NCBI RefSeq assembly: GCF_003334385.1
Contig: NZ_QOWN01000005.1
Length of the DNA: 64,000 nt
Source: Escherichia coli
GTDB lineage: Bacteria > Pseudomonadota > Gammaproteobacteria > Enterobacterales > Enterobacteriaceae
Direction: 5' to 3' (one strand)
Under the pieces are notes generated by a model. That model was not told where the DNA came from and did not search any database. It was given only the letters and a program-made list of their open reading frames with translations. A program made the position numbers and the translations under genes. Position 1 is the first letter of the stretch. The number at the start of each line of letters is the position of its first letter. Below, in pieces: positions 10,440 to 60,377 of this stretch.

Positions 10440-11098
10440 ACTTAACTCCACTGTCACACTTAACTCCCTTTCCCTTATTGGAATGCAGAGAAATAATCCT
10501 GAAGAATATGATTTATCATGCATATAAAATAAGAAAAAGCAAAATGAGTAAAATTCGGAAAACATAAAGATACGGGTTCTGATAAAAACAGAATCCATTG
10601 CCGTGGAATGAGTCATTTACCACAGCATAATAATCCATAATATTTTTGTTGCGAAAACAATCTAATCATAACTACCGCGAATACTCAATCATCTACAAAA
10701 TGGATTAAATGTGCTTATTTAATAATTAATTTATATATTTAATGCATTAATTCTTAACATTAATTGATCAATAATATTCACCAAATCAATATCAAAAAAA
10801 ATCGCAAAACATATAATTCAATACAAATCATCAGGATAGGTTTTGCAACGCGTGCATTTTGTCCCCTTTTTCCTCGTTGATTAGATGCAAAAATTTATGC
10901 TGAAATATGTCAACCGATGAAAAGCGTCGGTAGTTAAGCAGAAATTAATATCGCTTACTTTAACCACCGCAGCACAATTAGCTAATTTTACGGATGCAGA
11001 ACTCACGCTGGCGGGACGTTTTTATTGCGTCAGGGTTGACATCCGTTTTTGTATCCAGTAACTCTAAAAGCATATCGCATTCATCTGGAGCTGATTTA
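10440..11098. promoter_or_regulatory. leuO-leuL divergent intergenic region, strongly AT-rich (probable H-NS-bound silencing/promoter-relay region)
   Basis: 659-bp non-coding block; 10680-10860 is almost pure A/T (ttaataattaatttatatatttaatgcattaattcttaacattaattgatcaataatattc); role inferred from established knowledge. Confidence 0.5.
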
Positions 11099-11185
11099 AT
11101 GACTCACATCGTTCGCTTTATCGGTCTACTACTACTAAACGCATCTTCTTTGCGCGGTAGACGAGTGAGCGGCATCCAGCATTAA
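11099..11185 (+). CDS. leuL: leu operon leader peptide (28 aa) with four consecutive Leu codons
   Basis: ATG ACT CAC ATC GTT CGC TTT ATC GGT CTA CTA CTA CTA AAC ... = [28 protein letters not shown], stop TAA 11183-11185. Confidence 0.9.
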
Positions 11186-11208
11186 GCCAGCACGCAGTCA
11201 AACAAAAA

Positions 11209-11236
11209 ACCCGCGCCATTGCGCGGGTTTTTTTAT
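11209..11236 (+). terminator. leu attenuator intrinsic terminator
   Basis: acccgcgc-catt-gcgcgggt hairpin followed by T7 run, between leuL and leuA. Confidence 0.8.
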
Positions 11237-17213: not shown

Positions 17214-17440
17214 AAAAAAAACCAGCAGGTATAATCTGCTGGCGGGTGATTTTACACCAATACTCAGTCACACATGATGCAGGCAAGTCAACTTTCAGAA
17301 TTGCGGTCATCCCACTGCATCAGTCCTTCAAGCATGGTTAATCGTTGTGGGACGCTTAACCAACGCAACCAGCACAACTTCGCTGTCGCGGTAAAATAGT
17401 GCTGATAAAACTGACGCATGGGGCACCCCCTTGCTTCATC
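17214..17440 (-). ncRNA. sgrS: SgrS small RNA (glucose-phosphate stress sRNA, dual-function)
   Basis: Minus-strand 3' end reads ...AAATCACCCGCCAGCAGATTATACCTGCTGGTTTTTTTT (terminator, U8 tail at 17214-17221); 5' end GATGAAGCAAGGGGGTGCCC near 17440; divergent from sgrR; contains sgrT ORF. Confidence 0.85.
17288..17419 (-). CDS. sgrT: SgrT, 43-aa peptide encoded within SgrS
   Basis: C-terminal 43 codons of ORF-track frame 17288..17587: MRQFYQHYFTATAKLCWLRWLSVPQRLTMLEGLMQWDDRNSES, ATG at 17417-17419. Confidence 0.85.
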   Translation of the reverse strand: MRQFYQHYFTATAKLCWLRWLSVPQRLTMLEGLMQWDDRNSES

Positions 17441-19163: not shown

Positions 19164-19198
19164 TTGCTGGTTGATAACAAAATCACTACACTAACGCC

Positions 19199-19291
19199 GT
19201 TCTCAACGGGGTGCCACGCGTACGCGTGCGCTGAGAAAATACCCGTCGAACCTGATCCGGATAACGCCGGCGAAGGGATTTGAGGCTCCTT
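19199..19291 (+). promoter_or_regulatory. sroA: TPP riboswitch (THI-box; sroA) in thiBPQ leader
   Basis: THI-box core ggggtgccacgcgtacgcgtgcgCTGAGAaaatACCCgtcgAACCTGATCCGGATAAcGCCGGCGaAGGGA upstream of thiB; boundaries approximate. Confidence 0.75.
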
Positions 19292-19326
19292 CTCAAGTCC
19301 TTTGCCACTCTTTTTTGAGGTGCAAA

Positions 19327-22584: not shown

Positions 22585-22676
<92 letters not shown>

Positions 22677-22691
22677 GCACAAGACTATCTC

Positions 22692-23456
22692 CTAAACCCC
22701 AACCACTTTACGCAAAATATCGATATACACCGGCATCAACGGGTGGCGAATTAACACCACCAGCGCCACCACGCCGATGGCAGAAATCAACGGCGTCAGC
22801 CACAACAAACGACCGCGGGACAAATAATGACTCAAACGGTCAGTCGCTTTACCGCTGCGCCATAACCGCCAGCACAGCCAGCCACCAACCCACAAAAACA
22901 CCGCTGTTGCCAGCAGCAACCATTTAAACTCACCGCTCTGCATTCCGGCAGGAATATCGATCGCCGCGCCCGCCAGAATCCCTGGCAGGAAGTAAAACGG
23001 CGGCCACAGCAGGCAGCCGATAATATTCGGCGTAATAAATTTAGCCACCGGCAGATCCAGCATTCCCGCCACCATTGGCACCAGCGGACGCGTCGGGCCA
23101 ACAAAACGACCGACCAGAATGGTGAACATGCTGTGTTGATGCAACGCATGTTCAGTTTTATCAAGTAGTGCTTTGTTTTTCTTCAGAAATGACCAGCGAT
23201 GCAACGGCTTTTTAAAACGCCAACCCAGCCAGAAAGAAATCCAGTCGCCCATCAAGCAGCCAATAATCCCTGCCAGCCAGGCGTACCAGAAACTTAACTC
23301 GCCGCTGCCAATCAGCGCTCCCAGCCCCGCCATCAGCACCGTACCGGGTAGAATCAAACCGACCAGCGCCAGCGACTCCAGAAAGGCCACCAACACCACC
23401 GCCATCAATGAATACACGGTGGATTGGGTAATAAAGTGTTCCAGCAATGCTTGCAT
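22692..23456 (-). CDS. yabI: DedA-family inner membrane protein
   Basis: 254-aa hydrophobic ORF MQALLEHFITQSTVYSLMAVVLVAFLESLALVGLILPG (DedA/SNARE-associated signature). Confidence 0.9.
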   Translation of the reverse strand: MQALLEHFITQSTVYSLMAVVLVAFLESLALVGLILPGTVLMAGLGALIGSGELSFWYAWLAGIIGCLMGDWISFWLGWRFKKPLHRWSFLKKNKALLDKTEHALHQHSMFTILVGRFVGPTRPLVPMVAGMLDLPVAKFITPNIIGCLLWPPFYFLPGILAGAAIDIPAGMQSGEFKWLLLATAVFLWVGGWLCWRLWRSGKATDRLSHYLSRGRLLWLTPLISAIGVVALVVLIRHPLMPVYIDILRKVVGV

Positions 23457-23541
23457 AATGTGCCTGTCAAATGGACGAAGCAGGGATTCTGCAAACCCTA
23501 TGCTACTCCGTCAAGCCGTCAATTGTCTGATTCGTTACCAA

Positions 23542-24420
23542 TTATGACAACTTGACGGCTACATCATTCACTTTTTCTTCACAACCGGCACGAAACTCGC
23601 TCGGGCTGGCCCCGGTGCATTTTTTAAATACTCGCGAGAAATAGAGTTGATCGTCAAAACCAACATTGCGACCGACGGTGGCGATAGGCATCCGGGTAGT
23701 GCTCAAAAGCAGCTTCGCCTGACTAATGCGTTGGTCCTCGCGCCAGCTTAAGACGCTAATCCCTAACTGCTGGCGGAAAAGATGTGACAGACGCGACGGC
23801 GACAAGCAAACATGCTGTGCGACGCTGGCGATATCAAAATTGCTGTCTGCCAGGTGATCGCTGATGTACTGACAAGCCTCGCGTACCCGATTATCCATCG
23901 GTGGATGGAGCGACTCGTTAATCGCTTCCATGCGCCGCAGTAACAATTGCTCAAGCAGATTTATCGCCAGCAGCTCCGAATAGCGCCCTTCCCCTTGCCC
24001 GGCGTTAATGATTTGCCCAAACAGGTCGCTGAAATGCGGCTGGTGCGCTTCATCCGGGCGAAAGAAACCCGTATTGGCAAATATTGACGGCCAGTTAAGC
24101 CATTCATGCCAGTAGGCGCGCGGACGAAAGTAAACCCACTGGTGATACCATTCGCGAGCCTCCGGATGACGACCGTAGTGATGAATCTCTCCTGGCGGGA
24201 ACAGCAAAATATCACCCGGTCGGCAGACAAATTCTCGTCCCTGATTTTTCACCACCCCCTGACCGCGAATGGTGAGATTGAGAATATAACCTTTCATTCC
24301 CAGCGGTCGGTCGATAAAAAAATCGAGATAACCGTTGGCCTCAATCGGCGTTAAACCCGCCACCAGATGGGCGTTAAACGAGTATCCCGGCAGCAGGGGA
24401 TCATTTTGCGCTTCAGCCAT
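23542..24420 (-). CDS. araC: Arabinose operon regulator AraC
   Basis: ORF track frame 23542..24471; 292-aa protein from [55 protein letters not shown]. Confidence 0.95.
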
Positions 24421-26459
<2,039 letters not shown>

Positions 26460-26469
26460 GGACACGATA

Positions 26470-27972
26470 ATGACGATTTTTGATAATTATGAAGTGTGGT
26501 TTGTCATTGGCAGCCAGCATCTGTATGGCCCGGAAACCCTGCGTCAGGTCACCCAACATGCCGAGCACGTCGTTAATGCGCTGAATACGGAAGCGAAACT
26601 GCCCTGCAAACTGGTGTTGAAACCGCTGGGCACCACGCCGGATGAAATCACCGCTATTTGCCGCGACGCGAATTACGACGATCGTTGCGCTGGTCTGGTG
26701 GTGTGGCTGCACACCTTCTCCCCGGCCAAAATGTGGATCAACGGCCTGACCATGCTCAACAAACCGTTGCTGCAATTCCACACCCAGTTCAACGCGGCGC
26801 TGCCGTGGGACAGTATCGATATGGACTTTATGAACCTGAACCAGACTGCACATGGCGGTCGCGAGTTCGGCTTCATTGGCGCGCGTATGCGTCAGCAACA
26901 TGCCGTGGTTACCGGTCACTGGCAGGATAAACAAGCCCATGAGCGTATCGGCTCCTGGATGCGTCAGGCGGTCTCTAAACAGGATACCCGTCATCTGAAA
27001 GTCTGCCGATTTGGCGATAACATGCGTGAAGTGGCGGTCACCGATGGCGATAAAGTTGCCGCACAGATCAAGTTCGGTTTCTCCGTCAATACCTGGGCGG
27101 TTGGCGATCTGGTGCAGGTGGTGAACTCCATCAGCGACGGCGATGTTAACGCGCTGGTCGATGAGTACGAAAGCTGCTACACCATGACGCCTGCCACACA
27201 AATCCACGGCAAAAAACGACAGAACGTGCTGGAAGCGGCGCGTATTGAGCTGGGGATGAAGCGTTTCCTGGAACAAGGTGGCTTCCACGCGTTCACCACC
27301 ACCTTTGAAGATTTGCACGGTCTGAAACAGCTTCCTGGTCTGGCCGTACAGCGTCTGATGCAGCAGGGTTACGGCTTTGCGGGCGAAGGCGACTGGAAAA
27401 CTGCCGCCCTGCTTCGCATCATGAAGGTGATGTCAACCGGTCTGCAGGGCGGCACCTCCTTTATGGAGGACTACACCTATCACTTCGAGAAAGGTAATGA
27501 CCTGGTGCTCGGCTCCCATATGCTGGAAGTCTGCCCGTCGATCGCCGCAGAAGAGAAACCGATCCTCGACGTTCAGCATCTCGGTATTGGTGGTAAGGAC
27601 GATCCTGCCCGCCTGATCTTCAATACCCAAACCGGCCCAGCGATTGTCGCCAGCTTGATTGATCTCGGCGATCGTTACCGTCTACTGGTTAACTGCATCG
27701 ACACGGTGAAAACACCGCACTCCCTGCCGAAACTGCCGGTGGCGAATGCGCTGTGGAAAGCGCAACCGGATCTGCCAACTGCTTCCGAAGCGTGGATCCT
27801 CGCTGGTGGCGCGCACCATACCGTCTTCAGCCATGCACTGAACCTCAACGATATGCGCCAATTCGCCGAGATGCACGACATTGAAATCACGGTGATTGAT
27901 AACGACACACGCCTGCCAGCGTTTAAAGACGCGCTGCGCTGGAACGAAGTGTATTACGGGTTTCGTCGCTAA
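26470..27972 (+). CDS. araA: L-arabinose isomerase
   Basis: ORF track frame 26446..27972; 500-aa protein from [20 protein letters not shown]. Confidence 0.95.
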
Positions 27973-27989
27973 GTAGCCGCATCCGGTAT

Positions 27990-28415
27990 GTAACACCTGA
28001 TGCGACGCTGACGCGTCTTATCTGGCCTACACGCTGCGATTTTGTAGGCCGGATAAGCAAAGCGCATCCGGCATTCAACGCCTGATGCGACGCTGGCGCG
28101 TCTTATCAGGCCTACGCGCTGCGATTTTGTAGGCCGGATAAGCAAAGCGCATCCGGCATTCAACGCCTGATGCGACGCTGGCGCGTCTTATCAGGCCTAC
28201 GCGCTGCGATTTTGTAGGCCGGATAAGCAAAGCGCATCCGGCATTCAACGCCTGATGCGACGCTGGCGCGTCTTATCAGGCCTACGCGCTGCGATTTTGT
28301 AGGCCGGATAAGCAAAGCGCATCCGGCATTCAACGCCTGATGCGACGCTGGCGCGTCTTATCAGGCCTACACGCTGCGATTTTGTAGGCCGGATAAGCAA
28401 AGCGCATCCGGCACG
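27990..28415. repeat. Tandem array of five ~85-bp BIME units (paired inverted REP sequences) between araA and araD
   Basis: Unit boundaries about 27995/28080/28165/28250/28335; units 2-4 are identical 85-mers (gcctgatgcgacgctggcgcgtcttatcaggcctacgcgctgcgattttgtaggccggataagcaaagcgcatccggcattcaac), units 1 and 5 carry a few substitutions. Confidence 0.9.
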
Positions 28416-28426
28416 AAGGAGTCAAC

Positions 28427-29122
28427 ATGTTAGAAGATCTCAAACGCCAGGTATTAGAAGCCAACCTGGCGCTGCCAAAACACAACCTGGTCACGCTCAC
28501 ATGGGGCAACGTCAGCGCCGTTGATCGCGAGCGCGGCGTCTTTGTGATCAAACCTTCCGGCGTCGATTACAGCGTCATGACCGCTGACGATATGGTCGTG
28601 GTTAGCATCGAAACCGGTGAAGTGGTTGAAGGTACGAAAAAGCCCTCCTCCGACACGCCAACTCACCGGCTGCTCTATCAGGCATTCCCCTCCATTGGCG
28701 GCATTGTGCATACGCACTCGCGCCACGCCACCATCTGGGCGCAGGCGGGTCAGTCGATTCCAGCAACCGGCACCACCCACGCCGACTATTTCTACGGCAC
28801 CATTCCCTGCACCCGCAAAATGACCGACGCAGAAATCAACGGCGAATATGAGTGGGAAACCGGTAACGTCATCGTAGAAACCTTTGAAAAACAGGGTATC
28901 GATGCAGCGCAAATGCCCGGCGTTCTGGTCCATTCCCACGGCCCGTTTGCATGGGGCAAAAATGCCGAAGATGCGGTGCATAACGCCATCGTGCTGGAAG
29001 AGGTCGCTTATATGGGGATATTCTGCCGTCAGTTAGCGCCGCAGTTACCGGATATGCAGCAAACGCTGCTGGATAAACACTATCTGCGTAAGCATGGCGC
29101 GAAGGCATATTACGGGCAGTAA
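28427..29122 (+). CDS. araD: L-ribulose-5-phosphate 4-epimerase
   Basis: 231-aa [48 protein letters not shown] (class II aldolase fold). Confidence 0.95.
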
Positions 29123-29125
29123 TGA

Positions 29126-29141
29126 CTGTATAAAACCACAG
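29126..29141 (+). promoter_or_regulatory. LexA (SOS) box upstream of polB
   Basis: CTGTataaaaccACAG matches CTGT-N8-ACAG consensus; 56 nt upstream of polB GTG. Confidence 0.7.
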
Positions 29142-29153
29142 CCAATCAAACGA

Positions 29154-29182
29154 AACCAGGCTATACTCAAGCCTGGTTTTTT
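29154..29182 (+). terminator. Intrinsic terminator downstream of araD (lies inside the polB leader)
   Basis: aaccaggct-atactca-agcctggtt 9-bp stem followed by tttt(tt). Confidence 0.75.
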
Positions 29183-55744: not shown

Positions 55745-55830
<86 letters not shown>

Positions 55831-60201: not shown

Positions 60202-60377
60202 TGCCGGATGCGGCGTAAACGCCTTATCCAACTCTGCTGGAGAGCAACCGTAGGCCGGATAAGATGCGCCAGCATCGCATCCGGCGATAGCTGTCGGATG
60301 CGGCATAAACGCCTTATCCAACCCGGCTGGAGAGCAACCGTAAGCCGGATAAGATGCGCCAGCATCGCATCCGGCGA
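60202..60377. repeat. Two tandem ~86-bp BIME units (each an inverted REP pair) between convergent caiE and caiF
   Basis: Unit A 60202-60287 and unit B 60292-60377: t(g/t)(c/t)cggatgcggc(g/a)taaacgccttatccaac(t/c)c(t/g)gctggagagcaaccgta(g/a)gccggataagatgcgccagcatcgcatccggcga. Confidence 0.85.

Follow-up and report, generated by a model that had tools for sequence, protein, structure and literature searches.

A rare five-unit BIME-2 array between araA and araD in Escherichia coli, probably a recent length variant of a three-unit allele

Introduction

What kind of repeat fills the spacer between araA and araD in the araBAD operon of Escherichia coli, how does the number of its units come to differ between strains, and is the difference likely to matter for the operon? 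The question is raised by a 64,000-nucleotide stretch of one E. coli contig (NZ_QOWN01000005.1; referred to as the window, at its full length), in which the spacer appeared to be expanded. A sequence-only reading of this DNA had described a spacer of 454 bp composed of five head-to-tail units of ~85 bp, each containing two inverted REP sequences, and had given 284 bp and three units for the MG1655 reference. The same reading proposed that the array had expanded recently by unequal recombination, that it binds gyrase and IHF, and that its copy number could affect araD expression. Length polymorphism of BIME-2 elements has been on record since the 1990s. A BIME-2 is defined by z2 and y REPs that alternate in orientation, are separated by short linkers and are arranged in tandem, with a copy number that, at any one locus, differs from strain to strain (PMC3333891; PMC1187871), and the tandem range published for this class is 2-12 REPs (PMC1187871). 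Here, we describe the anatomy of the araA-araD array, compare it with K-12 and with 5,426 complete E. coli genomes, and weigh the explanations for its additional units and their possible effects.

A tandem BIME-2 fills the araA-araD spacer

The genes araB, araA, araD and polB follow one another in this order on the + strand (NCBIfam), and the array is entirely extragenic, lodged between the araA stop and the araD start, as is typical of BIME-2 elements. Measured between the araA TAA (27970-27972) and the araD ATG (28427), the spacer is 454 bp long, in agreement with the sequence-only reading. Tandem Repeats Finder reports a repeat at 27978-28413 with a period of 85, 5.1 copies, 97% matches, 0 indels and a score of 816, and the spacer is made up of five head-to-tail 85-bp units followed by the 11-bp beginning of a sixth (Table 1). 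Each unit consists of a 36-nt palindrome that ends with CTAC (the z2 REP, GCCTGATGCGACGCTGGCGCGTCTTATCAGGCCTAC), a 13-nt linker, a 29-nt palindrome that starts with GTAG (the y REP, GTAGGCCGGATAAGCAAAGCGCATCCGGC) and a 7-nt linker. This pattern is repeated five times to give ten full REPs, the one z2 and one y of each unit standing in opposite orientation, so that the five units with two inverted REPs each had been recognized correctly, as had the base-for-base identity of units 2-4 and the few mismatches of units 1 and 5. The place given for the array, 27990-28415, also held. Its outer limits had been drawn slightly too tight, in that the array starts at 27978 (27973 with the remnant in front of unit 1 included) and the last REP ends at 28412/28413. 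Pairing between this remnant and 27995-28004 can give a hairpin (27978-27987/27995-28004) that begins 5 nt past the araA stop, as indicated by the inverted repeat and the MFE structure.

Table 1. Coordinates of the araA-araD array, its neighboring genes and other features of the window.
Feature	Position	Strand	Basis or remark
Leucine operon leader	11085-11234	+	Rfam; expected K-12 position
SgrS	17214-17440	-	Rfam; expected K-12 position
TPP riboswitch 5' of thiB	19197-19296	+	Rfam; expected K-12 position
Lone REP	near 22648-22671		
araA, L-arabinose isomerase (upstream gene)	26470-27972	+	NCBIfam NF002795, residues 9-507 of ORF 26446-27972
araA stop codon TAA	27970-27972	+	Read from sequence
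araA-araD intercistronic spacer, 454 bp	27973-28426	+	Within araBAD transcript
GTAG-led remnant GTAGCCGCATCCGGT, like both ends of y REP	27973-27987	+	Inverted repeat and MFE structure
Unit 1, decayed	27978-28062	+	7 differences from internal unit, including private SNP at 27995
Private substitution A (G27995A)	27995	+	First base of unit-1 z2 stem; G in MG1655, Stbl4 and all other alleles examined
z2-type REP of unit 1, degenerate, ends CTAC	27995-28030	+	Pattern match
Zone holding the extra 170 bp	28032-28370	+	Insertion placeable at 170 equivalent positions (28032-28201)
y-type REPs, GTAG-first	28044-28072, 28129-28157, 28214-28242, 28299-28327, 28384-28412	+	Pattern match
Units 2, 3, 4, identical 85-bp copies	28063-28147, 28148-28232, 28233-28317	+	Base-for-base comparison
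Four intact z2 REPs	28080-28115, 28165-28200, 28250-28285, 28335-28370	+	Pattern match
Unit 5	28318-28402	+	1 difference (G>A, unit position 54 = 28371); equals last unit of MG1655 allele
Sixth unit, first 11 bases only (end of last y REP stem)	28403-28413	+	Tandem Repeats Finder register
araD Shine-Dalgarno AAGGAG	28416-28421	+	Read from sequence; 5 nt 5' of ATG, 3 nt past last REP
araD, L-ribulose-5-phosphate 4-epimerase (downstream gene)	28427-29122	+	TIGR00760, 449 bits; ATG at 28427
Single z2 + y pair	~55747-55823		
BIME (site ~60250-60323)	60253-60323	-	Rfam naRNA4 match, 70.7 bits

The z2 palindrome is identical to the published K-12 Z2 unit at 35 of 36 positions (PMC2817692 Table 1). 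The y palindrome matches both stem arms of the published Y unit, with 26/30 identical positions and an apex that is 5 nt shorter (PMC2817692 Table 1), and it is closer to Y than to Z2. The presence of z2 and y REPs in alternation, with short linkers, in tandem and with variable copy number, assigns the element to BIME-2, and, judged by its sequence, the araA-araD array is a textbook member of this class with ten full REPs. Its REP types, alternation, linkers, tandem range, extragenic site and polymorphism between strains are all as in the BIME-2 family of Gilson, Bachellier and Hofnung, without structural difference; only the apex of the y REP is 5 nt below the published Y example. BIME-1 elements (RIP/RIB) likewise contain an inverted REP pair in an extragenic region. 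In contrast to the araA-araD array, which has z2 REPs and linkers of 7 and 13 nt, BIME-1 consists of one y + z1 pair with a long L linker that carries an IHF site. The IHF consensus (WATCAANNNNTTR) has 0 matches within the array, and this absence, together with linkers that are too short and the presence of z2 instead of z1, excludes a BIME-1-type or IHF-binding element. The proposed binding of IHF was therefore abandoned, as it is a feature of the long L linker of BIME-1, whereas gyrase is the documented partner of BIME-2.

The array also resembles REP325/naRNA4 (RF02564), an element of a different locus that is built from the same y + z2 unit and is characterized by a discrete small RNA that works together with HU on the nucleoid. 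The four internal y + z2 pairs on the + strand score 60.2 bits, which exceeds the Rfam RF02564 gathering score of 59.5, and the units could accordingly be regarded as naRNA4-type genes for nucleoid-associated small RNAs rather than as passive repeats. This is extremely improbable. The score is barely over the threshold, and the ordinary BIME at 60253-60323 scores higher (70.7 bits); that an unrelated BIME outscores the array indicates that the RF02564 model recognizes BIME-2 units in general and not small RNA genes. Moreover, no promoter-like site was found in or near the array, which lies within the araBAD transcript. An array of naRNA4 genes was rejected on these grounds, and the match, which is marginal, reflects the shared BIME-2 unit.

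The window carries two more units than MG1655

The possibility that the reference spacer is itself 454 bp long was examined. It did not hold: the araA-araD spacer of MG1655 (66551-66834) is 284 bp long and contains three units, precisely as the sequence-only reading had stated. It occupies the same locus between identical flanks and has the same first, internal and last unit types as the window, from which it differs in two respects: the window has two extra copies of the internal unit and the substitution G27995A. Reversion of the substitution makes the window spacer the same as that of MG1655, save for an additional stretch of internal-unit sequence of exactly 170 bp, so that the predicted difference of exactly two units is reproduced to the base. 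Because the sequence is repeated, the 170-bp insertion has 170 equivalent placements, as expected from the gain of two internal units. The substitution seems to be confined to the window, and a 48-mer that bears it has no exact match in the GTDB representative genomes.

On the left of the array 1.7 kb of flanking sequence, and on the right 1.06 kb, are identical to MG1655. Over a block of 12.5 kb (23286-35799), the window and MG1655 are identical save G27995A and the 170-bp gain, both of which lie inside the array. The concentration of both changes in the 454-bp array of a 12.5-kb block is consistent with a local mutational hot spot and suggests a much higher mutation rate in the array than around it. 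A K-12 origin of the window is ruled out: to the right of the array, 32 kb of sequence contain 97 mismatches, and the strains that match it best over 24 kb are wild ones of phylogroup-A type, e.g. CFSAN061772, with no exact match among them. CFSAN061772, the nearest relative over 24 kb, carries a three-unit allele identical to that of MG1655. Since the nearest relatives found, CFSAN061772 and K-12, have three units within otherwise identical flanks, the expansion appears to be private to the lineage of the window and recent; the identity of the added units points in the same direction, and the earlier proposal of a recent expansion is thereby borne out.

Five units is the maximum observed in complete genomes

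To place the five-unit allele in the species, the locus was examined in 5,426 complete E. coli genomes, all of which match it. The spacer with 12-bp flanks served as the query, and E-value cut-offs were set such that an alignment had to exceed a chosen number of units to pass. At least two units are present in 3,174 genomes, at least three in 2,027 and at least four in 15; exactly five are present in 3 (0.06%), and more than five in 0 of the 5,426. By subtraction, one unit is found in ~2,252 genomes (41%), two units in ~1,147 (21%), three units in ~2,012 (37%) and four units in 12 (0.2%). Two systematic samples taken down the ranking (96 genomes) agree with these values, with three units in 38 genomes, two in 20, one in 37 and a rearranged locus in 1. 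The number of units largely tracks the sequence background.

Five units are carried by Stbl4, XL10-Gold and a record labelled TOP10 (CP080620), all three of them K-12 laboratory derivatives with neighboring accession numbers. Their 454-bp spacer is the same as that of the window except at position 27995. As these genomes are K-12 derivatives and the window is not, the expansion in the window was probably independent. Four units of the K-12 type are present in GM4792, XL1-Blue, JX21CE35 and FACU 2024, and four units are also found in BL21-RIPL and one BL21(DE3) assembly. In PT62/LP5-1, in 33F4/32F4/33E and in TB06052, the four units are mutually different, so that these arrays are unambiguous, and also older. 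Four-unit arrays thus occur on at least four unit-sequence backgrounds, which indicates that gains recur. Expansion to at least four units has happened several times on differing backgrounds, yet the resulting alleles stay rare.

Some of these records have peculiarities of their own. In NZ_CP080620.1, the record labelled TOP10, leuLABCD, araC and araBAD are all intact. The published TOP10 genotype includes an ara-leu deletion, so that this record is probably another K-12 cloning strain. The BL21-RIPL array, whose accession neighbors the five-unit series, has four units, the last three of which are identical and of the last type. It lacks the T and C at unit positions 57 and 59 that are seen in the second unit of T7Express, a BL21 derivative. 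A simple gain of one unit by the three-unit BL21 allele is ruled out by the missing unit-2 variants, and the BL21-RIPL array reflects either a multi-step rearrangement or conversion, or a homogenization of the repeats in the assembly.

These observations bear on whether the strain of the window really has five units. An assembly artefact would mean that the strain has three or four units and that the run of identical 85-bp repeats was mis-resolved. Units 2-4 are identical over 255 bp, which exceeds the length of typical short reads and makes a count based on such reads unreliable. Furthermore, none of the 5,426 complete genomes is a natural isolate with five units: the three that have them are laboratory-strain assemblies with neighboring accessions, apparently from a single sequencing series, one of them labelled TOP10 despite an intact ara-leu region, and the four-unit array of BL21-RIPL without the unit-2 variants of another BL21 derivative may have been homogenized during polishing. 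However, assemblers usually collapse tandem repeats instead of expanding them, and the added length corresponds to a whole number of units, between edge units that are perfectly kept. In addition, the genuine and resolvable four-unit arrays of PT62, 33F4 and TB06052 demonstrate that the locus does expand. The identical units, together with the five-unit and BL21-RIPL records, leave a small probability that the units of the window have been miscounted, and we consider an artefact to be unlikely. The case is also a caution that assemblies may give a wrong count for tandem REP arrays.

The locus is also a site of larger change in one strain. In IH5 (NZ_CP168269.1), the araA and araD ends of the spacer are ~1 Mb apart, and the araA side adjoins a gene whose annotation is polymorphic toxin type 34 domain protein, a configuration that points to rearrangement, with one breakpoint within the array or next to it.

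Origin of the additional units

Taken as a true count, five units are probably the outcome of a recent change in a resident BIME-2 that has 1-5 units species-wide, in which a three-unit allele of the K-12 type gained 170 bp as two exact internal copies. The gain may have occurred in one step of two units or in two steps of one unit each; four-unit intermediates exist in other genomes. The identical repeats would have paired out of register, through either replication slippage or unequal sister-strand exchange, and we infer that such slippage or exchange is the most likely and simplest cause. Unequal recombination, the route named by the sequence-only reading, may have operated, as one of three candidates beside replication slippage and amplification by TnpA_REP. 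Identical 85-bp tandem repeats are classic substrates for RecA-independent slippage. The K-12 derivatives with four or five units are, by their published genotypes, recA1 strains, and if the gains happened in recA1 backgrounds, a RecA-independent route would be favored.

TnpA_REP (RAYT, yafM), the REP-associated tyrosine transposase, could instead have added the extra units by cleavage and strand transfer at REP/iREP sites. The enzyme cuts and joins BIME substrates in vitro, and models of whole-unit addition have been proposed explicitly for the copy-number variation of BIME-2 (PMC3333891; PMC2817692). The sequence gained in the window consists of whole z2 + y units. However, no sequence feature separates the transposase from slippage, with a junction that can be placed at 170 positions, and identical repeats of this kind are well suited to slippage. 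The yafM gene, moreover, lies outside the window. We regard the transposase as a rather unlikely candidate, and out-of-register pairing of the resident units is preferred.

With either route, the five-unit allele is a rare and recent variant and the longest seen at the locus, and it is an ordinary length variant of a known polymorphism that implies no new mechanism. Differences in BIME-2 length between E. coli strains have been documented already (PMC3333891). What is new here is a species-wide count of units at one locus, with five as the observed maximum. In practice, araA-araD could be of some use as a minor marker for telling strains apart.

Predicted consequences for the araBAD transcript

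The spacer RNA of the araBAD strand has a minimum free energy of -229 kcal/mol (z = -8.7 vs shuffles), and each added unit is predicted to contribute about -45 kcal/mol. A search for intrinsic terminator-like sites, i.e. a GC-rich hairpin followed by a U tract, returned 0 in 27700-28700, and no promoter-like sites were found in or next to the array, and an internal promoter or an intrinsic (Rho-independent) terminator was accordingly rejected. The araD Shine-Dalgarno and start region have a predicted unpaired probability of 0.67-0.71 at every copy number from 1 to 8. This flat accessibility leaves one obvious route for a copy-number effect, the occlusion of the araD ribosome-binding site, unsupported, and it was rejected. 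On the araA side, the first full z2 REP begins 22 nt past the TAA (27995) and the alternative hairpin 5 nt past it; both are common to all alleles and independent of copy number. Translation of the upstream gene can be lowered by REPs whose start lies no more than 15 nt from a stop codon, according to the account of Liang, Rudd and Deutscher (2015) given in PMC12306157.

REP hairpins block 3'-to-5' exonucleases and thereby stabilize the upstream mRNA, and BIMEs can attenuate transcription (PMC12306157; PMC2817692). In polycistronic mRNAs, BIMEs bring about differential expression through stabilization of the upstream gene (PMC9023263). BIME-2 is a strong gyrase site, which the enzyme binds and cleaves in vivo (Espeli and Boccard 1997, as described in PMC3333891, PMC12306157 and PMC2817692). 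By extension, the array in the araBAD mRNA would fold into ~10 stable hairpins without a U tract, which would protect the upstream araBA segment from 3'-to-5' exonucleases and could give a partial Rho-dependent attenuation, so that the level of araD would differ from that of araBA. At the DNA level, the array would be a gyrase target like other BIME-2 elements. The roles of stabilizer, attenuator and gyrase target are those that we infer for the araA-araD array from established work on REPs and BIMEs. Parallels are found in the intercistronic REPs of malE-malF and hisJ-hisQ, which, as reported from Newbury et al. (1987) in PMC12306157, also lie within one operon and are expected to shield the upstream mRNA from 3' exonucleases, with differential expression of the flanking genes. 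The araBAD array is likened to them by its sequence and position; they have one or two REPs in that account, whereas the araA-araD array has ten.

The two extra units would bring more structure of this kind. In view of the published work on REPs and BIMEs, it is plausible that copy number influences the expression of araD, as the sequence-only reading suggested; for the five-unit variant, neutrality or something close to it is most likely. A stronger proposal is that copy number is a selected tuning of AraD relative to AraB and AraA, in which further units would either lower or raise it, and that the five-unit allele is favored through the balance of toxic L-ribulose-5-phosphate. The accumulation of L-ribulose-5-phosphate is toxic, and fitness depends on the balance of araA and araB expression (PMC7269641); BIMEs can attenuate downstream transcription and stabilize upstream mRNA (PMC12306157; PMC9023263), and the locus ranges from 1 to 5 units across the species. 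However, four or five units occur in only 15 of 5,426 genomes, unlike a favored allele, the number of units largely follows the sequence background, and the predicted accessibility of the ribosome-binding site is unchanged, all of which make selected tuning very unlikely. A related proposal sees in BIME-2 copy number a quickly mutating dial that sets AraD against AraBA and would shift araD attenuation or decay and, with it, L-ribulose-5-phosphate toxicity on arabinose. It takes the unit numbers of K-12 strains (three in MG1655, four in XL1-Blue and GM4792, five in XL10-Gold and Stbl4) as change on a laboratory timescale. We consider such a dial very improbable, and near-neutrality of the five-unit variant is retained as the preferred reading.

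A further length difference affects the same spacer at its araD end. In 1,569 of the 5,426 genomes (~29%), e.g. strain D5, a 54-bp GC-rich palindromic element (…TTTTCCCCCTCGCCCCTTTGGGGAGAGGGCCGGGGTGAGGGGAAACGACCTCTC…) is present between the last REP and the araD Shine-Dalgarno, where it replaces the CGA that precedes AGGAG. The window is without this element, which is a dispersed repeat found at a median of 12 places per genome and which resembles the boxC family.
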